DNA of 64,000 bases. Source: a virus (Duplodnaviria; Heunggongvirae; Uroviricota; Caudoviricetes). The stretch lies in IMG/VR virus record IMGVR_UViG_3300023171_000010, positions 1 through 64,000 of that record. One strand, given 5' to 3'. Shown one piece after another: positions 8,427-24,620 of the stretch. Both the position numbers and the translations under genes were made by a program. Position 1 is the first letter of the stretch. Each line of letters begins with the position of its first letter. The notes under the pieces are model-generated. The model had not been told where the DNA came from. It saw only the letters and a list, made by a program, of their open reading frames with translations, and searched no databases.

Positions 8427-9012
8427 AAGCTTCTTTCATCTTAATGTCGTATTTATTAGCAGCATAGCCCGGACCATTGTAGGCACGAGCTACACCAACC
8501 CAGTCTTTAGCTTTCAAAGCCCTCAAGACATTTGGGCTTGCTTTAACAAAACGAACAAAAAGATCGAGTTGACCTTCTTCTGTATAAGCCTTGTTCACAA
8601 ATTCTTGAACAGAATTAAAACCTAGAGCCTTCCAGTGCAGGCCAAGAATTTGAAACGATCCCCAAGAAGCACTTTCCAATGCTGATACACGATCAATCTT
8701 GATAGCCTTATCAAGACGTTCCCACTCAGCCAAACCCCCTTTGTAACCACCAGGAGATTCATTGACAATATCAGGATATTTAGCAGCCATATCTTTAGAT
8801 TTGATTGGAGTGAAATCTCTAAGCCTCTTAAACATGATATGACGTTCAAAGAGAATCTTAGGGACATTAGCACCTTTAGCGTCCTTGATGAAACCATATC
8901 CCTGACTCTCGATAGAAGCGACAGCCTTTACGGCTGCCTCCTCTACACCCAAGAGCTTTGCAGCTTCTGAATAGTTTGTCATATTATCCTTGGAATCCGT
9001 TATGTGCCACAT
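8404..9012 (-). CDS. endolysin, N-acetylmuramidase (DUF3380/PF11860-like)
   Basis: Motifs ILFERHIMFKRL and ASWGSFQILG recalled as typical of the muramidase family. Confidence 0.7.
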   Translation of the reverse strand: MWHITDSKDNMTNYSEAAKLLGVEEAAVKAVASIESQGYGFIKDAKGANVPKILFERHIMFKRLRDFTPIKSKDMAAKYPDIVNESPGGYKGGLAEWERLDKAIKIDRVSALESASWGSFQILGLHWKALGFNSVQEFVNKAYTEEGQLDLFVRFVKASPNVLRALKAKDWVGVARAYNGPGYAANKYDIKMKEAYERFSKS

Positions 9013-11098
9013 AACTCATACCCGTAGGTACAACACTTCCTGTAAGAGTTAGAGTATCTAGTGGTGCCATAAGATGAGCTGTTGGAGACGTGAAAGGTTT
9101 AGCCCAAGTACTGTCTCCCGGACGCCCAGCAGTGATACCCGTAAGCGTACCGCCTATAACAATAACCTCGATATATTGGCCTGTGTTATTGGTATAAGTA
9201 AATGGCAGAGAAGCTACAGCAATTGTTGTACGCCCTTTTAGTGGGTACTTGTATGCCAAAGAATCTTCATCATATAGGTTTTTCCATTCGGTTGCTGTGC
9301 CACTGTCAAAATATCCGCCAGCACCACTTGTCCAATGGTTGTATGTGACGTTTTCAATACAGTTTTTAACAGCCCCACCTTGAATTTCTATGCGTTCAAA
9401 GAAGCCGCCAGATACCTTGGAATTTCTTCCTTGTAAAATAATACTCTTAGAGGAATAGCAATTTATAAATTGAGTATGTTGACCAGCATCTGAAATATCT
9501 GCAGTTGCAGATATGTTTTCAAACCCTGTGCCAATAAAGGTATTATATCTACTTCCAGTTCCTACTACCAAGCCATAAACGCTACAACTTTCAGGGCTAC
9601 CACCAATAAAAGTGTTTTGGTCGCCCAATAGCATCCTTATGCCAATAGACAAGCCCTCAAAATAACAAGCTGTAAATACGTTGTTACTACAGTTACCAAT
9701 TGATACACCAGCTCTACGCCCCTCATCTAGCTTCAAACCCTCATAAGGCTTAGTGCTCATTGTTGAGTAGTCAGTGGAACACATTAACTTTTCAAATTTA
9801 CTGAGCATGAAACCTTTAAACGAAAATCCAATACCAGCTGTGGGCTCGGCCACACGAGCAGTAACGTTAGTCCAAGAACATCTGGCCAACCCCTGTACCT
9901 GAAAAATATTTGTTGTGGTTGAGTTACCTTCTACAGTGATATTGGTCAAGTTGCAAGCTTGTACAAAAGGATCAGAACCAGAGCCCGAAGAAAATGCATC
10001 TGCGAGGAAGGCAACACCGGAACCTGTAACTTTCAAAACAGACTGCCTATCGCTTTCTCCAATAAGACTCAGTCCACTATAGGCCATATTACCTAATGTA
10101 CTGCAAACATACACGCCTTTTGGAATATAGAGGGTGGTAGGTAGATTACTAGAAGCCCATGCCTTGGCAGCAGCAAAGCTTATGGTGTCATTTGTAGTAC
10201 CGTCCCCTTTCGCACCAAACTGTTTTAGGCTCACACCACCTCTTGTCACCAACTTCCATCTTCCTCCATCAGATGAAACAATAATTGTACCCATATTATC
10301 TACAGATGTGGTATCGCTAGGGTCCAAGAAGTACGTACCACCCCCGCCATCTCCTGCTATATAGTAACCCGAAACAAAAACTTTTGTGTGTACAAGCTTA
10401 TTAACGAGTTTAAGTTCAGAGATGCTACCTACAACATATTCTGCATGACCTTTAAAATATTGAGTGAGCGAAGTTCCGTCAAAACCAATCAGTGCTGCAC
10501 CTTTGTCTAGGTCTGAGCTATTTGAAAGGTCAGAAATCGCAGCACCTAATGTTCCAACAGAATAGACTGAAGCGGGATTATAACCTATTCTGTTTGCCCC
10601 CGGTGTACCAAGAGCCGAGGAAGAAAGATCATTTCTAAGGGTGTCTGTATAAGATTCAGAAGTTGATTGTGCAACATCCAAGTCCGATTGAGAAGCAAAG
10701 TAATCAATATTTTCATACGCTGCTGTGCCCAAGGAAGCTAATTCTAATTCTAAGGCTGTTACTCTATTATCTAATTGGGAGACATTATTAACTACTTGGG
10801 CAGACGTACCATTGAACTGATAAGCTTGACCTGTAGTCTTAATATTGAATATCAGCCATAAAGGTGTAGGTGTTGAATAATAGCTTGTGCCTACACAAAA
10901 GTACAGCCTATTATCAGTTGTAAGAAAGTAAGCCTTACCATTTGAAGCAGGGGGCAGGGCACTTACAAGACCGTCTATATTGTTATCAAACATGAAAGAA
11001 AACTTTAAAAGGTTCTCATCCATACCCGTATTCCAGCCACTCTCTCCGTAGGCCCAACCATACTTTGCTTCGAGGAAGGGAGAAGTTTTCTGTGTCAT
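8984..11098 (-). CDS. tailspike protein with pectate-lyase-like beta-helix (depolymerase candidate)
   Basis: 704 aa; QFGAKGDGTTNDT motif of Pectate_lyase_3-type beta-helix; Gly/Ser/Thr-rich repeats. Confidence 0.6.
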   Translation of the reverse strand: MTQKTSPFLEAKYGWAYGESGWNTGMDENLLKFSFMFDNNIDGLVSALPPASNGKAYFLTTDNRLYFCVGTSYYSTPTPLWLIFNIKTTGQAYQFNGTSAQVVNNVSQLDNRVTALELELASLGTAAYENIDYFASQSDLDVAQSTSESYTDTLRNDLSSSALGTPGANRIGYNPASVYSVGTLGAAISDLSNSSDLDKGAALIGFDGTSLTQYFKGHAEYVVGSISELKLVNKLVHTKVFVSGYYIAGDGGGGTYFLDPSDTTSVDNMGTIIVSSDGGRWKLVTRGGVSLKQFGAKGDGTTNDTISFAAAKAWASSNLPTTLYIPKGVYVCSTLGNMAYSGLSLIGESDRQSVLKVTGSGVAFLADAFSSGSGSDPFVQACNLTNITVEGNSTTTNIFQVQGLARCSWTNVTARVAEPTAGIGFSFKGFMLSKFEKLMCSTDYSTMSTKPYEGLKLDEGRRAGVSIGNCSNNVFTACYFEGLSIGIRMLLGDQNTFIGGSPESCSVYGLVVGTGSRYNTFIGTGFENISATADISDAGQHTQFINCYSSKSIILQGRNSKVSGGFFERIEIQGGAVKNCIENVTYNHWTSGAGGYFDSGTATEWKNLYDEDSLAYKYPLKGRTTIAVASLPFTYTNNTGQYIEVIVIGGTLTGITAGRPGDSTWAKPFTSPTAHLMAPLDTLTLTGSVVPTGMSYVAHNGFQG

Positions 11099-11198: not shown

Positions 11199-12068
11199 TT
11201 AATTACCTATGGAGATAATGAAGAACCCTGTGGTGCCGGTCCCACTTGATCTATAAGCCCTAAATTGAGTAGTACTAAAAGATTCTACTGAAATCATCTC
11301 TCCAGCAGGCACAGCCCCCACACCATCTGAACCAATAGTCAGAAAACTGTTGTTAGGGAATGCTGTTGGGAAACTGTAGAATTGAGCAGAAGAAGTTACA
11401 CTGATGGTATAAAACCCCCACTGTATGATTAAACCTCCAGGAATTTTTTGGTAACCATTTGCTGCAAGGGATTGATTAGTACCTTGAAAGGCTTCTGCCA
11501 GTTTTAACGCAGAAATTAGGGTTGTATTACTTGTTTGTTGTTGGGCTTGGAGTGTAGTTGCCACAGCCGTTTTAGCATCAACCTCTGTTTTAGTATATGT
11601 CTGAGCTTGGGAATATACAGATAAATTTGAACGAGCTGTTGCAGGGTTAGTAAGATCAGAAAGGTTTGCAGATTTCTGAAGATATCTTGCATCACTTTGT
11701 GTTTGAGTATAGAAATCACTTACGTTAGCAAAAGCAATTTCCCAGTAAGTGTCAGTGGTATCTGTCACTGGATTTTGGTTAATACTTACTTGCTTTGCCC
11801 GATAAATAGTGCCATCAGAACCCATGCAGATTGACTTGGTGCCACTCACACTATATTGATATTCTGTAGTATTGTCCCACACAGCAATGCCGTGTTGGTT
11901 AATATGGGCAATAGCTTGGTCTTGTTTATTATCAATGTAATTAAACCACTGACGGGGCGGAATCTCAACGGCCCAGCCGGTACTGATTTTACTGTCAGAT
12001 GGGGCCAAGACATCTCCAGCTGAAGCCCAAATTTTGTTAATGTCAGAAGGCTTGTTAATCTCGGCCAT
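11199..12068 (-). CDS. tail fiber protein
   Basis: 289 aa, Ser/Thr/Gln-rich fibrous composition, adjacent to tailspike and baseplate genes. Confidence 0.5.
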   Translation of the reverse strand: MAEINKPSDINKIWASAGDVLAPSDSKISTGWAVEIPPRQWFNYIDNKQDQAIAHINQHGIAVWDNTTEYQYSVSGTKSICMGSDGTIYRAKQVSINQNPVTDTTDTYWEIAFANVSDFYTQTQSDARYLQKSANLSDLTNPATARSNLSVYSQAQTYTKTEVDAKTAVATTLQAQQQTSNTTLISALKLAEAFQGTNQSLAANGYQKIPGGLIIQWGFYTISVTSSAQFYSFPTAFPNNSFLTIGSDGVGAVPAGEMISVESFSTTQFRAYRSSGTGTTGFFIISIGN

Positions 12069-12145: not shown

Positions 12146-12760
12146 GTGAAACTTAGAAAAAGAAACAGATTGGTTGCAGGTGTGGGTGTCAATGATGCAG
12201 ACTACAACGTGTATGAGTACGGAATAGTAAATGGTAAAAAGAAAGCAATATGGTCGTGCCCATTTTACGTAACTTGGAAAAGTATGCTAGTAAGATGCTA
12301 TTATGGTAAATACCAAGACATGTTTCCAACTTATATTGGATGTTCAGTCATATCGGAGTGGCACTTATTTTCAACCTTCAAAACTTGGATGCAGACTCAA
12401 GATTGGGAATCAAAACATCTTGACAAGGATATTCTAGTTAAAGCTAACAAATTATACAGCCCTGAAACTTGTGTTTTCGTTGATGCAAGAGTTAATACTT
12501 TTCTTGCGGAAAACAATGCTGTTCGTGGTCAGCAGCCTATCGGAGTATCTTTTCACAAGAGAGACAAAAAATATGTGGCTAAATGTTGTCCTATTGAAAA
12601 AGGAAAACCTAGGCATTTGGGCTATTTTGACACAGCCGAAGAAACCCATGCAGCATGGTTAGCATTCAAACTAGAGCAAGCTAAGATATTGGCATCTGAG
12701 CAACCAGATCAAAGAGTTGCTAAAGCTTTGATTGAACGCTATGAGAACTACACTTACTAA
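12146..12760 (+). CDS. freestanding homing-endonuclease-like protein (AP2-type C-terminal domain)
   Basis: Opposite strand inside the tail operon; homologous to ORF 57262-57921; C-terminal HLGYFDTAEETHAAW resembles an AP2 domain. Confidence 0.4.
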   Translation: MKLRKRNRLVAGVGVNDADYNVYEYGIVNGKKKAIWSCPFYVTWKSMLVRCYYGKYQDMFPTYIGCSVISEWHLFSTFKTWMQTQDWESKHLDKDILVKANKLYSPETCVFVDARVNTFLAENNAVRGQQPIGVSFHKRDKKYVAKCCPIEKGKPRHLGYFDTAEETHAAWLAFKLEQAKILASEQPDQRVAKALIERYENYTY

Positions 12761-12783: not shown

Positions 12784-13584
12784 TTAAATTTGGTAGAGGC
12801 TAGCGAAATATCCACCAGAAACTGTAGTGTAGTCACTCTCTCCGTAGTTTAAACCATAACCAAGTCCCCAGCCGTAGCTGCCTGTAAATTCCCCAAAACC
12901 CTTGGCGCCTGGTACTCCGTCAAAACCAAAGAAATTATCTCCATTATATTCTCCAAAGTTTATTCTCACACCCACTGTCTTTGGAATAAGTCTTGATGGA
13001 TAACCCGGTTCATTACTGATATAGAAGAGGAGCGCTCTTTCAAAGTCAGTCAAGGCTCTGGATAACAATACAGTAATAGAGGCGTCTCCCTCTTCTGTTA
13101 ATACTGTCGTATCAGTCCCAAAAACAAGGTTAAGTACTGCAAGGAATTCTTCTGGTGTAGATGACGTGGTGTTTTTAAAGATCTTAGCTTTAATGAAGAG
13201 TCTGTAGGTAGCGTCATCTAGTTCGATATTACCCCCAAGGGGTTTACCAAAATCGTAAAACATCCCACCTACAGATGGGTTGCCAACTTCACCAAAACTT
13301 GATGCTTTGGTTGCACCTTGAAATCCAAAGAAGTCGTAGAAGTCAGCATTCAGCAAGATACGTTCTTGACCAACAATCCTACCAATCACATCGAGTTGAG
13401 CACCAGTAGCAGTATCAAGGCTTCTAAGCTGCATCAAATCTTTGAATACTTTTTGTATTTCTACTTGAGCGTTGATAAGGAGTTGAAGATATTTATCAAA
13501 AACTTCCTTTCCTACGAACTGCTCCGTCACTCGTTCACGAGCTTCAGAAAGATAGTCGATTTCTTCAAAAGGCGTGATAGCCAT
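12784..13584 (-). CDS. baseplate protein (DUF2612 / XkdU-like)
   Basis: Follows baseplate J-like gene in PBSX-like order; MAITPFEEIDYLSEARE N-terminus recalled for the family. Confidence 0.45.
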   Translation of the reverse strand: MAITPFEEIDYLSEARERVTEQFVGKEVFDKYLQLLINAQVEIQKVFKDLMQLRSLDTATGAQLDVIGRIVGQERILLNADFYDFFGFQGATKASSFGEVGNPSVGGMFYDFGKPLGGNIELDDATYRLFIKAKIFKNTTSSTPEEFLAVLNLVFGTDTTVLTEEGDASITVLLSRALTDFERALLFYISNEPGYPSRLIPKTVGVRINFGEYNGDNFFGFDGVPGAKGFGEFTGSYGWGLGYGLNYGESDYTTVSGGYFASLYQI

Positions 13585-13594
13585 ATATCACTCC

Positions 13595-15037
13595 TTATGT
13601 ATTGATAATAATGTTGTCTGAAGACAGTGAAGCAATCATATCGAAAGCTACCGGAATACTGTCAGTACTTGTAGGGCTTGCGGATGTACCAATAAACAAG
13701 CTATCAATTTCATGACCTTTTACAGTATTGATTGGGGTAAATAATCTACTCCAAATAACATCATCACCAATACCAAGATTACTATCAAAGTATGCAATTA
13801 ATGCTGATTTGATATCGTCAACACCCGTACCTGGGAATTCACTATCAGTAGTGAGGTTGATCGTAATATAAACAGGTAGTGGATCAGGTCTTTCAAAACC
13901 AATATTATGAGAAAACCCTTGAGTATCGAAGATAACTACAACTGTATCACCGTAGCTTCTGATGCCCATTGGTTTATTTTCCCAAATGGTATTTGCAATA
14001 TCAATACTTACACCACCAAGAACAATCGGCATAAAGCTGTGTGCAGGAACACCAAACGCATCTACAACATCTGTATCATTCTCGTAGATTCTTACTTCCT
14101 CAACACCTTCAAGATTAATCAATGCCGAGTATAAAGCTTCAAGAATATTAGAGGCCCGTTCAAACTTAGTCTCTCTAAACCTTAAGCGAAGTTCCTCATC
14201 TGTTTCGAGATTTCTGCCGGGACTTGCAGCTTGGGGGTTTGTAACGCTGTCCCAACCAAGCTGGGGGGTAAGAATAACATTCAGTGTATTAGCTTCGGCG
14301 TTAACTTCGCCCACTGCACTACTCTGAACTTCACCAAGCTTTTGTACTTTAGTGATTCCAATATTAGGGGTAACAGTGAAAGTTACAGCAGAGAATTCAT
14401 CAACACGACTAATTTTAAGAGACGTACCCTCAATGCTGCTAACAAGACTAGGGTGGCTTGCAATAATTACAGCATTCAATCCAGCAACAATCTCAGCAGC
14501 TGTAGCAGAGGAGTCACTGGTAAAATTGATTGTGTTAGATGTAGTAATAGATGTATAAGTTATGCTATAAACTGTGGTGTTAGAGACCGTTACAGGAGTA
14601 ACCGTAACACCGACAGCTTGAGAAGGAGAAAGCGCTACAGGAGAGAGAATAGTCCACTGACTACTGTCAATTGAGCTGCCTACAGTGGGCCCTGATGACA
14701 CCAGAGTACCATTATCCCCTGAGATGATCACTTGTGCTGTTGAATAGGTCTGTTCTTGTCTGGTGATGCCACCAAGGGCTACAAGGTTATCCAGAGCAAT
14801 ACCCGTTGCAGAATTAGGATCAAATGCCTGATAATCCGCTTGTGCTACTTCCCACAAATCTGCTAAACTCGGACTCACAAGCGCTACAAGCCTACCCAGA
14901 GCTGAGCTATTGGATGTGTCGACCTGATCACCGGGTTCAACTAAATCTTGAAATAAAGAGGTAGCTTCAGCTCGTAAGTCTGAAAGTATCTCTGTCATTC
15001 TTTTAATTGTAAAGCCTTGGTCAGAAATACCCGCCAT
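13595..15037 (-). CDS. baseplate J-like protein (gp47/XkdT-like) with inserted Ig-like domain
   Basis: 480 aa at the baseplate J position; carries a ~60-aa module shared with the sheath protein. Confidence 0.55.
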   Translation of the reverse strand: MAGISDQGFTIKRMTEILSDLRAEATSLFQDLVEPGDQVDTSNSSALGRLVALVSPSLADLWEVAQADYQAFDPNSATGIALDNLVALGGITRQEQTYSTAQVIISGDNGTLVSSGPTVGSSIDSSQWTILSPVALSPSQAVGVTVTPVTVSNTTVYSITYTSITTSNTINFTSDSSATAAEIVAGLNAVIIASHPSLVSSIEGTSLKISRVDEFSAVTFTVTPNIGITKVQKLGEVQSSAVGEVNAEANTLNVILTPQLGWDSVTNPQAASPGRNLETDEELRLRFRETKFERASNILEALYSALINLEGVEEVRIYENDTDVVDAFGVPAHSFMPIVLGGVSIDIANTIWENKPMGIRSYGDTVVVIFDTQGFSHNIGFERPDPLPVYITINLTTDSEFPGTGVDDIKSALIAYFDSNLGIGDDVIWSRLFTPINTVKGHEIDSLFIGTSASPTSTDSIPVAFDMIASLSSDNIIINT

Positions 15038-15046
15038 TTTATTTCC

Positions 15047-15421
15047 TTAATTTACAGGGTTGACTATAATAGGAGATGTAATTTCTCCTGTAACAACCTT
15101 CACCTTAAAATTAAGTGAATATTGTCTGTTTTGAAAAGTGGAATCAAAGCTTACGATTTCTTTAACTCCGGGCTCTGCTAAGATTTGTTGTTGAAAGATA
15201 AGATCAATAGCAGACTTAGAGGTTTGCTTGATACCTAACAATCTTTGCCAATACGGAACGCCATATGTTGTATCAAGAAACCATTCACCCATGAATGTGA
15301 GAAGTCTAATCTTCAACCTTTGACCTACTGTTTGTGTATAAGGTTGAGTTGTGTAATCTTTGGTTAGAGGACCATTGTTCCAGAGAATGTCATGCTCAAG
15401 AGGGTCTAATTTGAAATCCAC
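15047..15421 (-). CDS. baseplate wedge protein (gp25/GPW/XkdS-like)
   Basis: 124 aa immediately upstream of baseplate J. Confidence 0.45.
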   Translation of the reverse strand: MDFKLDPLEHDILWNNGPLTKDYTTQPYTQTVGQRLKIRLLTFMGEWFLDTTYGVPYWQRLLGIKQTSKSAIDLIFQQQILAEPGVKEIVSFDSTFQNRQYSLNFKVKVVTGEITSPIIVNPVN

Positions 15422-15432
15422 TATTTATCACC

Positions 15433-16209
15433 TTAAGTTGTTGGAGTGCCTGAAGTACCACTTCCTGGGGTTACTCCCAGATGTTTGTGTGTCGAAAATG
15501 GAATTCCATTAAAGGTTGCAACACCGGTAATTGTATAGTTACCAATCTGTACAAGATTTCCTTGGAGATTGATGTTTCCTATCCATTGGGTACTTTGAGC
15601 ATCCACAACCATTGAAGGGGTGTTGAGATTAATGCTTTCAGAAGCATTAATAGTTGCTTGTGAACAATTAATAACCACGGGTTGATTCGATGTATTTATT
15701 TCAATACTACCATCAATTTTCAACCTAACTTCACTTTCAGCACCACCTAGATTAGCGAACATCACAGTGTCTTTAGTGTCGTGTGTTAGGACGTGCTTTG
15801 CTGGATTATTTACAGCCATTCCTGGGGGTTGGATTCCAGGGAGGAAAATAGCATCCCCTTTATCCATCTTAGCAAAGTTTGCCGGGGTGGACGGTCTACC
15901 ATTACCAGATTTCCAAGCATCCATATTTCTCATTGAGAATAAGGCTGTGCCTGTATCACCAACTTCAATAGGGAAAGTAAAACCAGATTTTTTAGATACT
16001 TGGAAAGCTACTGGTACACCCAAGATTGGGGGGCGTTCTTTTACAGTACCATCTTGGTACTTTTGATTAATGGTGGGTTGAATATCAACCATCTGCCCAT
16101 TCAGACCATCTCTTATACCAACAACAATACATGGGAGAATTGTATGTACATTCTGCATCTGGCTTTGGAAAGAAGATACTAGTACATCTTGAATAGCTTC
16201 TGCTGTCAC
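15433..16209 (-). CDS. baseplate spike/assembly protein (gpV/XkdR-like)
   Basis: 258 aa, position in baseplate module. Confidence 0.4.
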   Translation of the reverse strand: MTAEAIQDVLVSSFQSQMQNVHTILPCIVVGIRDGLNGQMVDIQPTINQKYQDGTVKERPPILGVPVAFQVSKKSGFTFPIEVGDTGTALFSMRNMDAWKSGNGRPSTPANFAKMDKGDAIFLPGIQPPGMAVNNPAKHVLTHDTKDTVMFANLGGAESEVRLKIDGSIEINTSNQPVVINCSQATINASESINLNTPSMVVDAQSTQWIGNINLQGNLVQIGNYTITGVATFNGIPFSTHKHLGVTPGSGTSGTPTT

Positions 16210-16219
16210 TTTAAACTCC

Positions 16220-17116
16220 TCAAGATTTTATAACCTTCTCTAAGCTGGATGCTTTGATTTCAGTGTACCAGCCTGGACTTCTCCAACCACCTGTGTGTCT
16301 GAGCGAGTCAACCCTAAGCCACCCAGTAATTAAGGTGTCTTCAAGACGAATAATATCTCCAGCCTTAATATCAGGATTGAGCAAAATCTTCATCTGAATA
16401 CCGGGTTTTTTAGCTTTATCTTTTTTAGACCTTTGTCTGTCACCAGACACCCTATAGGCACTATCTACCAGGCCTGTATATTTAGATATTACATATGCTT
16501 CTTGGAAGTTTTCAGTTGTAGCTCTGTCATTGTTGTGCACATAGAGAGTATCATCATCAATTTGCCAATCTAAGGCATATTTATTCGATAGCTCGTCCAA
16601 CATTTCTTTAGGAGTACCCATCAGAGGGTATCCATAGAGAATTTCATTATTTAGGTTAGTGCCATTATAAACACCACGAGAGACACCCGGAAGTGCTTGT
16701 CTCAAGGTCTCAGCAACCTCTCTCACAGTTTGCCCCGGAGCAACAATACTAGACAAAACTTGGTGATTAATCTCAGTATAACCTGCTCCAAGAGTGATCT
16801 GGGTAACTCTATCAGTCCCAGATTTACGTGTACTTACGTGAGTAACTTGACCACCAAATAATCTCTTTGGCCCACCAGTGTCTAGGTATCCAGCAGAAAA
16901 CACAGCAGCTGGATAATCTGTATCCAAAACTTTAAGGTGTTCTATTGATAGGTTTGTAACTTCAATAGATGCCGAGTTAGTACGTTTCTTATTGTCTGTA
17001 CTTTTACTGATATCAAACTGAACCTGAAGATCTGTAATCCTAAGACCATCACCAGTTTGGTAGTCACCTATGATTAGCTCATATTGACGATTTGATTGTC
17101 TTAGATTTAGGTCCAT
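16220..17116 (-). CDS. baseplate hub protein (late control D / XkdQ-like)
   Basis: 298 aa, position between tape measure and spike. Confidence 0.4.
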   Translation of the reverse strand: MDLNLRQSNRQYELIIGDYQTGDGLRITDLQVQFDISKSTDNKKRTNSASIEVTNLSIEHLKVLDTDYPAAVFSAGYLDTGGPKRLFGGQVTHVSTRKSGTDRVTQITLGAGYTEINHQVLSSIVAPGQTVREVAETLRQALPGVSRGVYNGTNLNNEILYGYPLMGTPKEMLDELSNKYALDWQIDDDTLYVHNNDRATTENFQEAYVISKYTGLVDSAYRVSGDRQRSKKDKAKKPGIQMKILLNPDIKAGDIIRLEDTLITGWLRVDSLRHTGGWRSPGWYTEIKASSLEKVIKS

Positions 17117-17121
17117 TTAAT

Positions 17122-17451
17122 TTACTCTGAATACAGATAATAGAGATTGTAGTACTGATCTAAAGAATCTGGATAGGCTTTATAAGGTTCTGAAATAATA
17201 TCCGCCTTCTCCTCCATCCAAAAGAATCCTGTAAGAGGAAAGATAGCATAGTCTTTAAATATAGGATAGTTTGGAACTAAAGCCTCACCAACAACAATTG
17301 GATTACTCTCAGAATCAAAAAGGCTTAATGAATAGAGTTGAGTTCTCTCATTATAGATAAACTCCAGAATATAAGAGCTACCTTGCAAAGCAATTGGATA
17401 AGAGTAGTAAGGATCAGCAAACAAGGGCAATGAAATATATTTATCAACCAT
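17122..17451 (-). CDS. hypothetical tail protein
   Basis: 109-aa ORF in the tail operon. Confidence 0.3.
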   Translation of the reverse strand: MVDKYISLPLFADPYYSYPIALQGSSYILEFIYNERTQLYSLSLFDSESNPIVVGEALVPNYPIFKDYAIFPLTGFFWMEEKADIISEPYKAYPDSLDQYYNLYYLYSE

Positions 17452-18241
17452 TTTCTCTTGCCTGCCTTAATGGGTCTGTGTCTTTAGGGGCATTACTTCC
17501 TGCGTCAGCACCATCAACATTTTGTGGGGTGCTATCTTGTTTACCTTTAGAAGACTTATCTGAAGCTTTCTTTTTCAAAGAGTTTGTAATATCTTTAGGG
17601 ATCGTTGTCTTCTTCAAGAAAGCAAAAGTGATCTGCTCAAAAGTCATATCACAATACAAACCATAACCCGTATTAGGATCTTCCTTGAAGATAAGATTAG
17701 TCATCACTAAGTTATTAATAACTTTACGGAGTAATGTCTTATCGTATTCGAACAACCTTACAATTTGAATATTAGGGTCAAATTGTCCAGTCTTTTCATT
17801 AAATAGTACACCAGAAGTCAAGTCAACTAATGCTTGTCTAATTTGTTCAAGTAAGTCTGTACGTCTACTATCAACCACAACTTCTGGTGTACTATCGGAT
17901 AGAAATTGTCCGATGCTATCAGGGATAAACTTTTTAAGTACGCTTTGATCAGTGGAGTTAACTGAGACAGCAGTAGGAGCTTCCTGACTATTAAAAGGTG
18001 CATTGCCAACCAAATCTTGAATAAGGTAAGTTCCTGTAGAAATATCCACACCCGTAATAATAGCACTAATAGTAATCTTATTGTTATCTTTAACAAAGTG
18101 ATCAGAAATATTAGCACCACCATCTACAGGATGTGATGTAACTTTACCTGAATAATTTTGAGTGTAGGCGGTGACAGAGTCCATATAGATAAAGCCACCA
18201 CCTTCCTCATTATCATTCCCCCAACGTAGGGCTAAAGACAT
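17444..18241 (-). CDS. tail/baseplate protein (XkdP-position)
   Basis: 265 aa directly downstream of tape measure. Confidence 0.35.
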   Translation of the reverse strand: MSLALRWGNDNEEGGGFIYMDSVTAYTQNYSGKVTSHPVDGGANISDHFVKDNNKITISAIITGVDISTGTYLIQDLVGNAPFNSQEAPTAVSVNSTDQSVLKKFIPDSIGQFLSDSTPEVVVDSRRTDLLEQIRQALVDLTSGVLFNEKTGQFDPNIQIVRLFEYDKTLLRKVINNLVMTNLIFKEDPNTGYGLYCDMTFEQITFAFLKKTTIPKDITNSLKKKASDKSSKGKQDSTPQNVDGADAGSNAPKDTDPLRQARENG

Positions 18242-18242
18242 A

Positions 18243-20075
18243 TTATTCTCCTACTGGGAAATTTACGTTAACCTGTTCAAACATGGTTACAAGCCTATTA
18301 CCAAGGTCTTCAGCTTGAGCTGCAACATCCATATTTGCCATAGTGATAGGGTCAATACTAATCTGCAAACTTACTGAAGTAGTTAAAGGCTGAGATTTTT
18401 GTTGGTTTGCAAGATCTGCCAACATGTTTTTCAGGTTGTCATCATAATCTGAAGGATTTTTATAGAAAGCAGAGTCAGGATTATCGTAAACGGCGTTCCC
18501 TCTCTCTGTAGCTCTTCCAAAAGCATCACTAGCACCACCAAAGAATTTTCCAAGAGTTTGGTAAGTTGCTGTAATAGGTCTGTCAATGAAACTTACATCT
18601 TGCTCTTGATTTGGTGAGGCAATTAAATTATTCTTCCACTTCTGAAACTCTGCAATCTGATTCATAATCATCGCAATTTCACGAGCTGTAGCTTCTAGTG
18701 TGGGTAAGAAGTCGAACTTAATTGTACCTATACTTGTAAAAATGCTTTGAATTGTTTTCCAATCAGAAATTAGTTGTGATGTTTTATCAATACCCAGCCA
18801 ATCTGCTACAAGACTGTCTTTGCCTTCAAGAGCCCTGATGAAAGATTGAGGGAAAAGAAGTAAGTCATCAGCAAATTTGGTAGCCTCGTTGAAGCCTTCC
18901 GACAGAGTCCTTACCAAACCTCCACTCTCACTTAAACCTGCTGAAAGGGTTCTAAATATCCTAGCAAAACCCTCTTCAACGCCAGAACTTGAAGCAATTA
19001 CAGCAAGATCTGTAAGTCTATTCTGATATCTTGCTTGCTCTGCTTGAGATGCTTGAGATGCTGAAGCTAAACCCGGTGCTGCCCTTTGAGATGCTACATC
19101 TCCAGCATAAGTAAGGATATCCCCCTTGACTTTCCTGTCTTTCATAGCGGCTAACAGTTCAGTGATTGCAGCCTGACCTGTCTTACCACCGCCAGCACCT
19201 GTTGCCTTTAATTTATTTTGATAGGCTTCGGCGAAAATGCTTACAGCACCCGGCAGACTTTCTGCCAGCTGGCCTGTTAACTCTTCGCTCATCAACTGGT
19301 TCTTACCAGCAACTTGACTTAGTGCTCTATATACACGATTCTGGGCTGTTCTGTCTAATTTATTTACACGGGATAACTCAGAGAAACCTTTGAAAACTCC
19401 TTGACCTTGTTGTACGCTCATACCAGCGCCTGTGAGGCCTGACAAAAGTTTATTGTAGTCAGGAGAAGCGTCTAAGTAATTAAAGCCAATACGCTGACCT
19501 TCTTTACGGAGCCATTCGAATGATTGATTTCCCTGTTCAGCTGTACCACCGGCCTGCTGAACTACAGCCTGTGACTGAAGTTGCGCACTCACTACTTGTT
19601 GGTTTCTTTGATTCAGGGCACCGAGGCCATAACCGCCCAGACCTAGGGCCAGTGCTGGTCCATATAGTCTAGAAATCCCTCCCGCAATCCCTCCAGCAAC
19701 AGCAGCATGTCTTCCAGTGACACCAGCGCCTTGTGCGTGTACGTTAGGCCTAATTGTAGCTGATTGACTTGCTACACGACTGGCTTGTGTCGTTGCAGCA
19801 GTCATGGCCCTATTCAAATGGGCTTGGTCAACAACAAACCTTGAGATTTGGAAAGTAGTTCTAGCAGAGGCGATATCTAGTGCTGTACCAAGAGCTAAGT
19901 TTAAGCGTCTTTGGTCAACATCAAATTTACCCAATGAAAGAGTAATAGGTTTATTGGCAATATTACCAAAAGACTTAAGTCTTGCTTCAAGTCTGTTAAG
20001 TACCTTATCTACTCTTTTAACAGACGCTTTATCAATATCAAAACCTAGACTAGCGAAGTATTTACTAATTTGCAA
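18243..20075 (-). CDS. tail tape measure protein
   Basis: 610 aa, Ala/Gly/Gln-rich helical, downstream of chaperone pair; probable TTG start. Confidence 0.6.
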   Translation of the reverse strand: MQISKYFASLGFDIDKASVKRVDKVLNRLEARLKSFGNIANKPITLSLGKFDVDQRRLNLALGTALDIASARTTFQISRFVVDQAHLNRAMTAATTQASRVASQSATIRPNVHAQGAGVTGRHAAVAGGIAGGISRLYGPALALGLGGYGLGALNQRNQQVVSAQLQSQAVVQQAGGTAEQGNQSFEWLRKEGQRIGFNYLDASPDYNKLLSGLTGAGMSVQQGQGVFKGFSELSRVNKLDRTAQNRVYRALSQVAGKNQLMSEELTGQLAESLPGAVSIFAEAYQNKLKATGAGGGKTGQAAITELLAAMKDRKVKGDILTYAGDVASQRAAPGLASASQASQAEQARYQNRLTDLAVIASSSGVEEGFARIFRTLSAGLSESGGLVRTLSEGFNEATKFADDLLLFPQSFIRALEGKDSLVADWLGIDKTSQLISDWKTIQSIFTSIGTIKFDFLPTLEATAREIAMIMNQIAEFQKWKNNLIASPNQEQDVSFIDRPITATYQTLGKFFGGASDAFGRATERGNAVYDNPDSAFYKNPSDYDDNLKNMLADLANQQKSQPLTTSVSLQISIDPITMANMDVAAQAEDLGNRLVTMFEQVNVNFPVGE

Positions 20076-20089
20076 TGTTCATTACTCCG

Positions 20090-20340
20090 TTATTTATTTT
20101 TAGGTTTCTTTGCTTTTTGTTGTTCTGCAAATTGATCTTGAAGTGAATCATAAACATCGAGCAGTTCTAACATTTTATAAAGCTGCCTAGTAGAATACTT
20201 GCTATCCATCTGTGCGGCTATTTCAAGCCCGCCTTTTTCGTGCATCGCTATTCTATAAATCTGCCAGGACTGAGAGAATGTCTCATCGATATTCTTCTCT
20301 AAAGGTGTAGGGGGTTTTCTATCTCCCGATCCAGATCTTA
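20090..20340 (-). CDS. -1 frame extension of tail assembly chaperone (GT-like frameshift product, putative)
   Basis: Frame -1 relative to the chaperone is open from inside its 3' end to TAA at 20092-20090 (about 90 codons); GTTTTTC run near the junction. Confidence 0.35.
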
Positions 20341-20658
20341 CTCTTCTGAATCGGGCTGTTGAAAAACATCGGCAAAGTTATACATGAGAACTTCTTGATA
20401 GAGCTTTTGTAAATGTCCATATTTACGAGAAAAGGCAGAGTCAAAAGTCTCTGCTGTAATCGTACGATTATTCTTGGATACATATTTACAGATGATTTGT
20501 TTCATCTGACTCAAATCTGCTTTACCACTATCAATTGCTTCTTGGTGCTTCTCTAGGAATTTCAAACCTTCTGTGGCAGGCATTGCCTGCACAAGGTACT
20601 CAATGTCATCTAGAGTAATAGTAGTTTGTTCGGGTAGTTCAAATTGTGGAGCTGCCAT
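20338..20658 (-). CDS. tail assembly chaperone (G-like)
   Basis: 106-aa acidic protein between tube and tape measure. Confidence 0.5.
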   Translation of the reverse strand: MAAPQFELPEQTTITLDDIEYLVQAMPATEGLKFLEKHQEAIDSGKADLSQMKQIICKYVSKNNRTITAETFDSAFSRKYGHLQKLYQEVLMYNFADVFQQPDSEE

Positions 20659-20668
20659 TTATTTTATC

Positions 20669-21166
20669 TCAGATTAAATTGTTTACAAAATCACTAGCTT
20701 CATTAACAATACTGTCAAAGATGCTAGTAGATGGTCTTGTATTACCAGCAACTGTATAAGTATCGGTGGTTTGACAAAATATCTCCCAATTCCGATATTC
20801 AAACTGTCCAGAATACGTGGCTGTAGGGTATCCTACGATATAGGCTTCATTAGACGAATATACACTAGCACCTGATCTGTCTTTTAAAGTAAGAGAAATA
20901 CGTGCTGTACCTTCCTCTAAATCTAATTCATGAATATAAGATAGTACATCATTACTAGGGGAAAATTGAATAAGTGGTATTGTGATTGTGCAAGAGCTGT
21001 CCACATTAAGGACTCTTGTATGCTTACCCCGAATACCCCTTATTACTGTAAACCCTTTTGCGCTTCTAGAGATAGAAATACTTTCCCAGCCGACTACAGT
21101 ATATCCACCAATAATTAGCTGTACATCTTTTGGTGAGTAAGTTGTTACTGTAAAACTATTAGCCAT
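20669..21166 (-). CDS. tail tube protein paralog C
   Basis: 165 aa; shares GF.DGTFIS / SPSNDVL / KDRSG motifs with ORFs 22228-22731 and 22779-23312. Confidence 0.5.
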   Translation of the reverse strand: MANSFTVTTYSPKDVQLIIGGYTVVGWESISISRSAKGFTVIRGIRGKHTRVLNVDSSCTITIPLIQFSPSNDVLSYIHELDLEEGTARISLTLKDRSGASVYSSNEAYIVGYPTATYSGQFEYRNWEIFCQTTDTYTVAGNTRPSTSIFDSIVNEASDFVNNLI

Positions 21167-21178
21167 TACGGGGTTCCT

Positions 21179-22171
21179 TCATATTTGTAGCCCGCCGAAC
21201 TCTTCATAAATCGAAACAATTACATCTATATTACTGAAATAAGAAGTTTCGGTATAACCGTCCATGATTTCTTCCTTTGGTAATACTGAGCAGTCAATCC
21301 TATTTTTACATTCCCTTTCGGCCATCAAGCACATAGCCTCATTAGGAAATTCCCATATACCAAGTGTTCTTAACGTGTACACTGTTTTGGAACTCTGCTC
21401 TTTTAGTCTACGTACTGGACTTCTGGCAACGCCAAACTTAACAGCAATTATATTTAAAGAATCATAAATCCCTGTTATATACGCCTTATTAGAGTTTGTT
21501 TTCCTACAAGCGCAGGGCAGACAACCATTTTGTAAAGATCCTGTATAAGATTCTGCCTCTTCATTGCACACGGGGCAAAACATTTTCCAGTATGTTTTGT
21601 ATCCATAAGAGTTGAGTCTATCACTTCTCCAGAATTTAGTTTCTGGATGAAAAACTCCAAGTCTCATAAAAGATTTAATCATATCTATATCAGGCTTAGT
21701 TAACCGTTTTGAGGTCAGCTCGGATTTACAATCTGAACATCCTTTATAGTTACGATTAACTAAATAACTGATTTTGTTGACTTCGTATTGACCGTGTTCA
21801 GGACAACTTAGTAAGCACTTAGTTTTAGCACCTTTAAACTCACCAATAAAGCCAATAAAAACCACTCCAATTTCAGTAGCCTTTCTTGAACACAGGACAG
21901 AATGTTGGTCTTTTGACCACTTGGGGATTCTACTGCAACCACAAGGTAGTGTACCTTTGCTAATTTCAGACTTAATTATTCTAAAATAACCCTGCCCAAA
22001 TAATTCAGGATCTTTTGAGCAAATATGACATTTAGCTATGTAAAACTTTTTAGTACCTTGTTTACCAGTCCACCCTACAATCTCCAGTTGGTTATGTGGG
22101 CCAAAACAGTCGCCAACTAAAGAGTCTTTGCATAACTCAAAATTCGAGTCCAAAAGTTTTTCTAAGTCCAT
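21179..22171 (-). CDS. freestanding homing endonuclease candidate (Cys-rich Zn-finger region + GIY-YIG/T5orf172-like C-terminal domain)
   Basis: 330 aa inserted between tube paralogs; several CxxC pairs; C-terminal GIYDSLNIIAVKFGVARSPVRRLKEQ...GYTETSYF resembles a T5orf172/GIY-YIG core. Confidence 0.4.
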   Translation of the reverse strand: MDLEKLLDSNFELCKDSLVGDCFGPHNQLEIVGWTGKQGTKKFYIAKCHICSKDPELFGQGYFRIIKSEISKGTLPCGCSRIPKWSKDQHSVLCSRKATEIGVVFIGFIGEFKGAKTKCLLSCPEHGQYEVNKISYLVNRNYKGCSDCKSELTSKRLTKPDIDMIKSFMRLGVFHPETKFWRSDRLNSYGYKTYWKMFCPVCNEEAESYTGSLQNGCLPCACRKTNSNKAYITGIYDSLNIIAVKFGVARSPVRRLKEQSSKTVYTLRTLGIWEFPNEAMCLMAERECKNRIDCSVLPKEEIMDGYTETSYFSNIDVIVSIYEEFGGLQI

Positions 22172-22227
22172 GGATAATCCCTTTATTGTGATTTAGGGAT
22201 TTTACAAGAAAAACTTAAAAATGTCAA

Positions 22228-22731
22228 CTAAATTATTCCTTGCAGTGCCGGTAATGCTCCAATTGCCAAGTTTACAAGATCTTGAACAAGACTTTCTTCG
22301 CTAGAATTGCTACCATAGTTGATTATGGCTTGAGACGACCTTAGTACCCATGTCCTTGTATCTATGCCACTACTCTTACTCATCGTAGGTAATCCTTCGA
22401 TCCAAGTGTTGGTGGAGAATAATAAGTCAGAGCCAGATCTATCTTTCACAAATAAACTAAATTTCCCTTTTTGACTGATTTCGTCTAACTGCCAGAACTT
22501 AGTCAAAACATCATTGGAAGGAGAGCCACAATGTAGTGTCAATGTAATCGTATAAGTTTGGTCATTGTTGTAAATTCTTCCTACCATTCCATCAGCTGTC
22601 CTGCCTGATGAAAAGGGTACTAGGTCTTTTGTGACACTTATGAATGTCCCATCAATAAACCCGCTTACAGGGAGGATACCACCTATTAAGCAAGAAACTT
22701 CATCGGGACAGTAATTGAAGATATCTGCCAT
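22228..22731 (-). CDS. tail tube protein paralog B
   Basis: 167 aa; GFIDGTFISV, SPSNDVL and KDRSG motifs. Confidence 0.5.
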   Translation of the reverse strand: MADIFNYCPDEVSCLIGGILPVSGFIDGTFISVTKDLVPFSSGRTADGMVGRIYNNDQTYTITLTLHCGSPSNDVLTKFWQLDEISQKGKFSLFVKDRSGSDLLFSTNTWIEGLPTMSKSSGIDTRTWVLRSSQAIINYGSNSSEESLVQDLVNLAIGALPALQGII

Positions 22732-22778
22732 ACCCTTTCCTTAAAATAAGAAAGGGGGAGATTAATCCCCCATATCTA

Positions 22779-23312
22779 TTACTGATTACCCAGCTGCCAA
22801 CGAGCTTCTACAGTACCACCAACGGCGTTAACTGCTGCAACATCTGCTGCACTAAGAAGCATATTACCACCAATGAACAGGTCACTACCAAACATGTAGA
22901 TATTCCAATCACGAGTTTCTGTAGTCGAGCTAAAAGAAGCATTCGCAGGCGCTGCAATGATAGCATTGCTTGAAGATACTACAGTCTGCCCACTCAAATC
23001 TTTCATAGTGCAAGAGAACACCCAGTCATTGCCTGGGTTGTTTGCGTCAGCATTCTGAAGTGCTTGAAGGACAGTATTTGATGGTGAATACTGATGGAGT
23101 GTTACAGTAACATTCATCGCTGTAACACGACGCTTTACTCGACCAAAAGCATTATCACCTACACCTTGATAAGGCTCTGATGTTGGGACAATTCGATCCA
23201 TAGAGATGAAAGTGCCATCTGCAAAACCTGTTACTCGGTGAATAAAATCACCTTTACTTAGGATGATTGTAAAATCATCCGGCAAATAATTGCCAATTCC
23301 TGTGTCAGACAT
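22779..23312 (-). CDS. tail tube protein paralog A (probable major tube)
   Basis: 177 aa immediately after sheath gene; GFADGTFISM and SPSNTVL motifs. Confidence 0.5.
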   Translation of the reverse strand: MSDTGIGNYLPDDFTIILSKGDFIHRVTGFADGTFISMDRIVPTSEPYQGVGDNAFGRVKRRVTAMNVTVTLHQYSPSNTVLQALQNADANNPGNDWVFSCTMKDLSGQTVVSSSNAIIAAPANASFSSTTETRDWNIYMFGSDLFIGGNMLLSAADVAAVNAVGGTVEARWQLGNQ

Positions 23313-23327
23313 TTATAATTATCCTAT

Positions 23328-24620
23328 TTATACAGACAGGTAAAATTCAATATCCACAAAACGCACACTGCCTTGTAGGCGAGCACGGATTACGAAAACA
23401 CCCGCTGCACGTTGTGCACGTAGAGTAGGACTAATAGACAGGACAGGGGGTGTCTGAACAGTCCAACCACGATCAATGAGGCCATTGGCTTCCGCTTGTG
23501 AAAGAACAGCACGGATTTCATTCTCAACAACAATAAGACCTGGGTCTGTCATTGGAATTTTTAGGCTGTTAATAATACGGAAATAGATACCTTCTTGTAA
23601 ACGAGCTTTCAGCCAGTCTTTGCCAATTTGAACATCGATCGGTTTTCCGTCAAACATATCACCATTCATGAAAACATTTACACCACCTTTGGCAATGTAG
23701 TAGTTCCATGATTTATCTTTAAGATTGGTAATCTGAGTACCGGAAAGTTTGCTTACAGTTACACCATTAGCCCTTTTGAAATCCCAATCATTGGCACCTG
23801 GAGTAACAGCGAGTTGAGACCCAGCCCAAGCCGCTTCTGGAAATTCTGTAGCTGCTGTTGGTAAATACACACCAAAAGTACGACCAGCAGATTTAGCATT
23901 AAGTTTAGCACCGATATCAGTTGTTCCGGCTGTAGGGGCCACAACATCAGCTGAAGAAAGACCGTAGATCTTCTCACGAGCTTGAATTGCATCAGAAAGA
24001 GCTTCTTGCTCTGCTTCTACTTGCGTTTCTGAAAGGAGGAGATACCAAGTATCGTTATCTTGTTCCACGGCCTCAAGAGCTTCAACCCAATCTTCTGTAG
24101 GAGCAACATTTACCAAGGAAATATTAGGGGAAGATTTTACACTCCAAGCACTACCTGGTGTAGTTGGGGCTACAGTAAAAGTGCCATCCAAGTTGTCGGT
24201 AAAATTAATTCCAGTTGGAGTACCTACAGCGGTGTCTAAACCAGCAACGATTTCAATTGCTGTAGCCGAAGCGTCAGAAGTAAAACTGTGAGCTGTATCA
24301 TTAATCGTAATAGTATACACTGTATTATTTGTTACAGTAACACTACCATTAACAGTGTCAACTTGTCTACGACCAACAATTACTGCTGGAGGTGGAGCAC
24401 CTAGAACGCTAGTCTGCCCAAAAAGTTTTGCTGCCATACGGTAAGTATTGCTAGTTGATGCAAAATCTGCACCTACTGCTGCAATACTCGTGTATGTTCT
24501 AGACCTTTCAGAGAAATTTGTAAACGTATTTAGAATCAGGGGGTATTGAAAAGAAGCTGTACTGATAGCTGTGGATTCATCATAAATGACAACCCTGACT
24601 ACATCATCCAGTTCACTCAT
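23328..24620 (-). CDS. tail sheath protein
   Basis: 430 aa upstream of tube genes; contains an inserted Ig-like module shared with baseplate J. Confidence 0.6.
   Translation of the reverse strand: MSELDDVVRVVIYDESTAISTASFQYPLILNTFTNFSERSRTYTSIAAVGADFASTSNTYRMAAKLFGQTSVLGAPPPAVIVGRRQVDTVNGSVTVTNNTVYTITINDTAHSFTSDASATAIEIVAGLDTAVGTPTGINFTDNLDGTFTVAPTTPGSAWSVKSSPNISLVNVAPTEDWVEALEAVEQDNDTWYLLLSETQVEAEQEALSDAIQAREKIYGLSSADVVAPTAGTTDIGAKLNAKSAGRTFGVYLPTAATEFPEAAWAGSQLAVTPGANDWDFKRANGVTVSKLSGTQITNLKDKSWNYYIAKGGVNVFMNGDMFDGKPIDVQIGKDWLKARLQEGIYFRIINSLKIPMTDPGLIVVENEIRAVLSQAEANGLIDRGWTVQTPPVLSISPTLRAQRAAGVFVIRARLQGSVRFVDIEFYLSV

Follow-up and report, generated by a model that had tools for sequence, protein, structure and literature searches.

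Homologous segments in the tail sheath and baseplate J proteins of a metagenomic Felix O1/Pakpunavirus-like phage

Why should two different components of one phage tail carry the same piece of protein? The question is raised by a 64,000-nucleotide stretch of Caudoviricetes DNA, positions 1 to 64,000 of the IMG/VR virus record IMGVR_UViG_3300023171_000010, referred to here as the window. A first-pass annotation, made from the sequence alone, noted that the putative tail sheath and a baseplate J-like protein encoded in the window closely resemble each other over roughly 60 residues. The two segments are homologous and are ancient paralogues. The phage itself is an ordinary Felix-O1/Pakpunavirus-like phage which carries an unnamed, widespread domain family, and it is known from metagenomes only; megablast of positions 13595-24620 against cultured phages gave zero matches. 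By protein, the closest cultured relative is the marine Pseudomonas phage vB_PsaM_M1 (M1; sheath 50% and J 56% amino acid identity). Otagovirus (phiPsa374), KIL-like phages and Pakpunavirus are next-nearest, and the Felix O1, rV5/phiTE and phi92 groups are farther away. A large metagenomic clade of 84-93 kb contigs encodes proteins 60-95% identical to those of this phage. Relatives with solved structures include P7-1 (Pakpunavirus; sheath gp76, 9zdk; Triplex large subunit gp88, 9zd7), Bas63, phiTE, phi92 and the minimal myophage Pam3.

The shared segment and its predicted fold

The gene at 23328..24620 (negative strand, as are all features of the window unless stated otherwise) encodes a DUF3383-type tail sheath protein of 430 residues. 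Residues 6-390 score 101.9 bits against Pfam DUF3383 (PF11863; cutoff 34.9), and the protein matches phrog_205 (tail sheath) at E 1e-93, the solved sheath gp76 of P7-1 (9zdk_S) at E 2e-77, and the sheaths of phi92 (gp130), Bas63 and phiTE at E 1e-18 to 3e-28. The gene adjoins terminator and tube genes, in the same order as in M1, K5 and phiPsa374. The gene at 13595..15037 encodes a Baseplate J protein of 480 residues, equivalent to wedge protein 2 or the Triplex large subunit. It scores 45.1 bits against Pfam Baseplate_J (PF04865; cutoff 21.1), matches phrog_6 (baseplate wedge subunit) at E 2e-61, and is homologous to the solved proteins P7-1 gp88 (9zd7_0, E 3e-110) and Bas63 wedge protein 2 gp023 (9ndy_H, E 2e-42), as well as to those of phiTE and phi92. 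A lambda gpD (HDPD) identity for J residues 94-187 was considered spurious, the Pfam match (E 0.019) being below threshold.

Both open reading frames (ORFs) are as first described, and the local alignment between their products is significant when compared with shuffled sequences. The sheath peptide originally singled out, residues 86-150, is encoded by nt 24171-24365. BLASTP aligns sheath residues 100-172 with J residues 160-231 at 38% identity (E 3e-5). The Smith-Waterman score of the two proteins is 114, versus 48+/-8 (maximum 91, n=1000) for whole-protein shuffles and 57+/-9 (maximum 102, n=1000) for shuffles made inside 25-residue windows. Since shuffles that preserve local composition never reach 114, a composition rich in Thr, Ser and Val is insufficient as an explanation. 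When either module is used as a phmmer query on the window translated in six frames, the other protein alone is found, at E about 4e-6. No third copy was detected in the window by phmmer of six-frame ORFs or by the joint profile described below; a match at 9241-9387 (negative strand, 0.0025) is a 49-residue out-of-frame fragment within a fibre gene and was treated as noise.

While the shared segment itself stands, the length of roughly 60 residues first given to it does not. Joint alignment of the sheath and J families (alignment A3) extends it to about 85-91 residues, namely sheath residues 88-172 (24105..24359) and J residues 141-231 (14345..14617), and the two copies align end to end in A3 at 36% identity with one 4-residue indel. 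The sheath copy is the equivalent of 'D2', the external domain in Bas63 gp13. The J copy is nested inside a larger inserted region, residues 95-265 (14243..14755), which superposes on wedge-2 chains of Bas63. In tblastn searches against cultured phages the sheath module found sheaths only and the J module found the J protein of M1 only, at a sensitivity too low for other contexts.

The suggestion that the module is a separate insertion is borne out both by structure prediction and by comparison with a minimal relative. AlphaFold 2 (AF2) models of the excised segments are confident, with a predicted local distance difference test (pLDDT) of 90.3 and a predicted template modelling score (pTM) of 0.79 for sheath residues 78-178, and 93.8 and 0.86, respectively, for J residues 95-265. 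Both models have the same order of elements, i.e. three strands, one helix of 12-15 residues and four strands; in the J model further beta structure surrounds the nested module. By phmmer the Pam3 sheath (384 residues) covers sheath residues 175-426 only, and Pam3 gp22 (299 residues, through its own residues 92-294) covers J residues 278-477 only, leaving an N-terminal remainder of about 90 residues in Pam3 gp22 versus about 277 in J. Thus, the module-bearing regions are without counterpart in Pam3. Consistent with this, the P7-1 sheath has three domains and the Pam3 sheath two (PMC13338283). As modelled, the sheath module is an external domain of the Bas63 'D2' type, a predicted separate globular insertion that follows the N-terminal core segment and is absent from two-domain sheaths.

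An Ig-like or BIG fold, also proposed at first, is not supported. The predicted fold is mixed alpha/beta, with the helix packed between strands, and the top Foldseek matches are outer domains of sheath and wedge proteins. Pfam Ig-type families match 2 of 26 module sequences, none above threshold (best E 0.0014), and the sheath module of the window has no Pfam match at E<=1. Foldseek gave whole-chain matches, and it is by position in the sequence that they are assigned to the external domain. The sheath model matches the sheaths of A-1(L) (8kee_C, E 3.9e-4, TMq 0.75) and phiTE (9cc7_I, E 8.3e-4), followed by those of Milano, Mu and Bas63; 9mt4_Q was also matched. It likewise matches Bas63 wedge 2 (9ndy_L, E 6.9e-4, TMq 0.67, root mean square deviation (rmsd) 2.8 A over 90 columns), on par with its matches to solved sheaths; 9ndy_L is taken as wedge 2 because the J-region model matches chains 9ndy_L/I/H/K. 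These latter matches have E values of 1.5e-10 to 2.6e-6 and TMq of 0.84-0.67, with a best rmsd of 2.3 A. The J region also matches phiTE 9cuy_S and, among sheaths, those of Milano, phiTE, Mu, A-1(L) (100 columns, rmsd 3.7 A) and Bas63 (99 columns, rmsd 3.1 A). A search of BFVD with the module model returned sheaths, Mu gp47/J-like proteins and the T7-like tail tubular protein B; the best sheath match was that of Pseudomonas phage vB_PaeM_G1, at about 37% identity over the module model.

The most similar part of the two copies is a motif, FTSDASATAIEIVAGLDT in the sheath (24231..24284) and FTSDSSATAAEIVAGLNA in J (14471..14524), in which 14 of 18 residues are shared, with identical codons at 6 of those 14. 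In the AF2 models the consensus FTSD(A/S)SATA(I/A)EIVAGL comprises the end of strand 3 (sheath residues 109-114), the pre-helix loop and the single helix (sheath residues 121-132), and the hydrophobic residues of the helix are spaced i/i+3/i+7. Five columns of A3 are invariant in the sheath and J families (Y102, A119, I124, G127 and N166 in sheath numbering), and the hydrophobic spacing of the helix suggests that these are fold-core positions. The stretch TSDxSATAxEIVAGL is probably the core of the fold, and its identity would then have been kept by folding constraints and not by recent DNA exchange. Two discrete variants of the motif, TSDxSATAxEI and TSGxGATAxSI, are found among the clade's sheath modules and J modules alike (loci L008-L035); within the motif, Asp pairs with Glu and Gly pairs with Ser.

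An ancient relationship and a wide family

The resemblance is not peculiar to this phage. A hidden Markov model (HMM) of the sheath module detects 123 of 125 J proteins at i-E<1e-3, including those of K5 (7e-5), Amme-3, phiPsa374 and, marginally, Felix O1, and the J-module HMM detects 121 of 125 sheaths at the same threshold. Comparison of the two profiles by hhalign gives a probability of 97.8% and an E value of 1.2e-12 over 81 columns. In M1, Amme-3, phiPsa374, K5 and Felix O1 the best local alignment of sheath with J falls at the equivalent positions, even where alone it is not significant.

The first-pass annotation read the match as a domain shuffled between two tail components. As a recent event this is not borne out. 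In 25 genomes with both genes, median scores between orthologous modules are 200-380 versus 46-122 between sheath and J, and orthologous modules are 2-4x more alike than paralogous ones in every one of these genomes. Because orthologue scores exceed paralogue scores, the sheath and J copies are separate orthologous lineages. The two best-conserved blocks contain 23 identical residues, of which 8 use the same codon versus 9.3 expected from codon usage; synonymous sites between the copies are saturated, which together with the orthologue scores indicates that no recent transfer has taken place. The copies would predate the split of the marine clade from Pakpunavirus and Otagovirus, and probably also that from Felix O1-like phages.

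A recent domain swap, gene conversion or concerted evolution between the two genes would nonetheless account for several features. The sheath-J pair of this phage scores 114, and those of L018, L021 and L024 score 122, 121 and 117, versus a cross-genome mean of about 74. After double-centring, a same-genome excess of +5.5 score units persists (permutation p 0.004), and both proteins bear the same two motif variants. However, identical codons are no more frequent than codon usage predicts, no DNA repeat beyond chance links the two genes, and orthologues outscore paralogues in every genome. Nor is the co-occurrence of TSD and TSG variants in the sheath and J modules of the same genome significant (Fisher p 0.61), and in M1 the variants of the two proteins are mismatched. 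A recent swap or conversion is therefore very improbable, being largely refuted by the codons, the absence of a DNA repeat and the orthologue-paralogue scores; any co-evolution of the sheath and J modules is unproven. Chance resemblance of two Thr/Ser/Val-rich beta-strand regions can be dismissed with near certainty, for although both segments are compositionally biased (HMMER bias 8-17 bits), it is refuted by the local-composition shuffles, the profile-profile comparison and the reciprocal matches to experimental structures.

Within the metagenomic clade both proteins vary most in their module regions, whose mean identity to the window sequence is 0.51-0.62 versus 0.7-0.9 for the cores. Among 20 related genomes (loci L008-L035) divergence of the sheath module barely follows that of the sheath core (Mantel r 0.23), and divergence of the J module follows that of the J core (r 0.95). 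This suggests that the sheath outer domain has been exchanged among related phages independently of the rest of its gene, i.e. by intragenic mosaicism.

Beyond these two proteins the module recurs widely, so that a search in other virion proteins, as had been proposed, was successful: capsid cement proteins contain it, and some sheaths and J proteins have 2-3 copies. The joint profile A3 was searched against 1.84 billion cluster representatives (clusters at 50% identity) and detected 1244 proteins at E<=1e-3, 190 of them at E<=1e-10. The best 150 of the 1244 can be grouped into four categories. Group one, sheath-like proteins, has 42 members, a few with 2-3 copies. Group two, J-like proteins, has 20 members, three with 2 copies. 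Group three, capsid cement proteins of about 340-380 residues, has 30 members, which usually have two N-terminal copies followed by a PF22758 domain of the E217 gp24/Pam3 gp6 type. Group four, all others (58 members), includes proteins of 800-1950 residues with 3-9 tandem copies, some of these giants also bearing Calx-beta, DUF2341, fn3 or TSP3 domains. Family members, cement proteins among them, carry the same signature, e.g. YTVTINGVAVTFTSDASGTQAEISAGL; example loci are L038 5449-6540 and L039 2191-6726.

Gene neighbourhoods agree with this range. In an E217-like phage a two-copy cement gene is flanked by the portal/scaffold genes on one side and by the major capsid gene on the other, and the sheath of the same phage has the module too. 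One giant protein is encoded amid chemotaxis, Lon and UDG genes, i.e. in a bacterial chromosome, and another comes from a Bdellovibrionota metagenome-assembled genome. A two-module cement protein (P0248) had no tblastn match among cultured phages. No curated model covers the module of about 85 residues: Pfam yields only scattered non-significant matches (best E 0.0014 among 26 sequences), NCBIfam yields none, and phrog_33525 (function unknown) is the sole PHROG that overlaps it. The two copies in the window are members of a large unnamed family, often tandem, reused in capsid cement and giant bacterial surface proteins.

Possible roles and the neighbouring genes

What might such a domain do on a tail? 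The explanation that we favour, with moderate confidence, is that the sheath and J copies are ancient paralogous outer domains which, by analogy with relatives, may dock tail fibres. The shared segment would be an independently folding alpha/beta domain of about 85 residues, its helix amphipathic, inserted on the outer face of both tail proteins: as external 'D2' in the sheath and nested in the peripheral D2 insertion of the wedge protein. Together the copies would make up a repeating surface on the outside of the tail, on which folded-back fibres dock. The wedge copy may help to anchor the base of the fibre at the rim of the baseplate, and the sheath copies may line grooves that house the folded-back fibres, so that the extended tail would be stabilised until fibre release.

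This proposal is made because outer domains of solved relatives contact folded-back fibres and because the genes for the likely partners are just downstream of J. Outer domains touch folded-back tail fibres in three solved relatives (PMC12609058, PMC10966104, PMC13338283). The first-pass annotation had suggested that the module may mediate contact between sheath and baseplate or adhesion to the host surface; these relatives point instead to contacts with fibres. In A-1(L) the long tail fibre (LTF) is held by the insertion domain of the gp31B wedge protein, and its arm is in a sheath groove (PMC10966104). In P7-1 the short tail fibre (STF) lies embedded within the lattice of the sheath and is proposed to stabilise the extended tail (PMC13338283). 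In the window, the genes directly downstream of J encode the expected partners, i.e. the wedge-1 or Triplex small subunit and two fibre proteins. The former (12784..13584, 266 residues) matches phrog_587 and baseplate-protein phrogs, and its position corresponds to that of P7-1 gp89, a fibre attachment partner in P7-1 (PMC13338283). The candidate ligands of the module are a tail fibre protein of 289 residues (11199..12068; phrog_2282 tail fiber, E 4e-51) and a second, tail fibre or tailspike-like protein of 704 residues (8984..11098), which matches several tail fibre and tail protein phrogs.

Several points weigh against fibre docking. For this phage it is deduced from cryo-electron microscopy (cryo-EM) of relatives. 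In P7-1, the nearest relative with a solved structure, attachment of both fibres is ascribed to loops on gp89, the small Triplex subunit, and not to gp88 (PMC13338283). In mirror-tree tests, divergence of the sheath module is not significantly correlated with that of the first fibre after control for core divergence (partial Mantel r 0.10, p 0.15); for the J module there is a correlation (partial r 0.58), but the adjacency of the genes confounds it. The burial of the motif residues is suggested by a pattern in the sequence. Finally, fibre docking cannot be the general role of the family, because the module is also on capsid cement and bacterial surface proteins, without tail fibres.

The main rival is weak adhesion, analogous to that of Ig-like decoration domains, in which low-affinity contacts made by the sheath, rim and capsid with polysaccharides of the host surface, or with polymers in the environment, would raise the encounter rate and contacts with fibres would be incidental. 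The distribution of the module is typical of promiscuous surface-display domains (two copies on cement, 1-3 in sheaths and J proteins, tandem arrays in giants), and the accessory domains of the giants, the bacterial chromosomal example and the high variability of the module within sheath and J all point the same way, as does a weak structural resemblance of the module to FliD and to the D2/D3 outer domains of flagellin. Yet no carbohydrate-binding family or motif was detected in the module in Pfam and NCBIfam scans, equivalent domains touch fibres in three solved relatives, and the five conserved positions look, from their pattern, like fold core. General adhesion is accordingly considered rather unlikely, though it stands ahead of the other alternatives.

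Fibre docking could also be cast more broadly. The module may represent an undescribed protein-docking family of >1200 clusters, placed wherever a folded-back fibre or whisker parks, be it on the sheath, the wedge rim or capsid cement, with the sheath and wedge copies of this marine clade co-evolving via the same fibre. Co-evolution by a common fibre would explain both the same-genome similarity excess and the shared motif variants; we regard this extension as doubtful. Slightly more doubtful still is a purely architectural spacer, in which the module would make only lattice contacts among sheath subunits or wedges and so tune the stability of the extended tail, without an external ligand. Minimal myophages such as Pam3 do without the module (PMC13338283), and the authors of the Bas63 structure call the function of sheath D2 'not entirely clear' (PMC12609058). 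A spacer, however, leaves unexplained both the use of the module on capsid cement and bacterial multi-repeat proteins and the contacts with fibres seen in the maps of Bas63, A-1(L) and P7-1. Fibre docking by ancient paralogous outer domains is retained as the preferred reading for this tail.

Other features of the tail region can be noted. Two endonuclease genes interrupt it. An HNH endonuclease gene (12146-12760, positive strand; phrog_953, E 5e-85) runs counter to its neighbours, the wedge-1 gene on one side and the fibre genes on the other, and a second endonuclease gene (21179-22171; phrog_681, E 3e-58) is among small tail ORFs downstream of the sheath gene. Both are probably homing endonucleases; the annotations of M1, K5 and phiPsa374 have an endonuclease at neither of the two positions. 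Three ORFs of similar size that follow the sheath gene, 22779-23312 (177 residues; phrog_280, virion structural protein), 22228-22731 (167 residues) and 20669-21166 (165 residues), recall the tube, tube-B and tube-C proteins of P7-1. A tape measure-like ORF at 18243-20075, called with a TTG start, encodes 610 residues and is far shorter than its counterparts of 690-790 residues in M1, Amme-3, phiPsa374 and K5; the tail may therefore be shorter than in those phages.

Comparison with known systems

Part of this picture is already known: neither protein is anything but an ordinary member of its known family, and published structures already show the domains. That the outer domains of sheath and wedge form one family, shared with cement and giant bacterial proteins, seems unreported. 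A statement of homology between sheath D2 and wedge D2 was not found in the papers on Bas63, phi92, phiTE, P7-1 and A-1(L) or by further full-text searching, which is not proof that none exists. The cryo-EM papers describe the outer sheath domains and peripheral wedge domains separately, with a function 'not entirely clear'. If they are one family, an unnamed family gains a definition from which a Pfam-type model for annotation could be made, the parking of folded-back fibres along the tail becomes a concrete, testable idea, and the module becomes a candidate place at which the retention or display of fibres could be engineered in therapeutic phages of the Pakpunavirus- and Felix O1-like groups. 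For the window itself the shared module is mostly a regular feature of the phage group.

Among domains of similar habit, the Ig-like, BIG and FN3 accessory domains on phage virions (Hoc-like decoration and similar), reportedly described by Fraser et al. in 2006, share the life style of the module, being small, promiscuous, added at the surface of capsid, tail or baseplate, often duplicated, and present in bacterial surface proteins. They are all-beta sandwiches, whereas the module is mixed alpha/beta with one helix. Likeness at the level of fold only (10-19% identity) extends to the nozzle or tail tubular protein B of T7-like podophages, found by Foldseek in P-SCSP1u (8i4m_A, TMq 0.72, rmsd 1.8 A), T7 gp12 (6r21_a) and Kp7, and more weakly to flagellin D2/D3 and FliD. 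For 8i4m_A, 6r21_a and 7y22_Y together, the whole-chain matches of the sheath module to nozzle proteins span TMq 0.65-0.72 and rmsd 1.8-3.2 A. Cement proteins of the PF22758 (E217 gp24/Pam3 gp6) family with N-terminal extensions have the same motif in a different host protein, on the capsid surface; no module-bearing cement protein is encoded in this window.

The nearest equivalents of the J copy are the D2 or insertion domains of large wedge subunits (Bas63 gp23, P7-1 gp88, phiTE wedge 2 and A-1(L) gp31), the Bas63 chains being those on which J residues 95-265 superpose. In Bas63 and A-1(L) this peripheral wedge domain holds a fibre, and in P7-1 that role is assigned to the small subunit instead. 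For the sheath copy the counterpart is D2 of Bas63 gp13 (residues 81-184), the external domain of a 'type 2' myophage sheath, which like the sheath module directly follows the N-terminal core strand and whose fold matches by Foldseek. The P7-1 gp76, phiTE and A-1(L) gp9 sheaths have an extra external domain, which appears to be this one, judging from its position in the sequence and from the whole-chain Foldseek matches; the two-domain sheath of Pam3 is without it. Compared with the sheath modules of cultured Pseudomonas phages, the copy described here is divergent, at about 40-50% identity, and differs from them in nothing essential.

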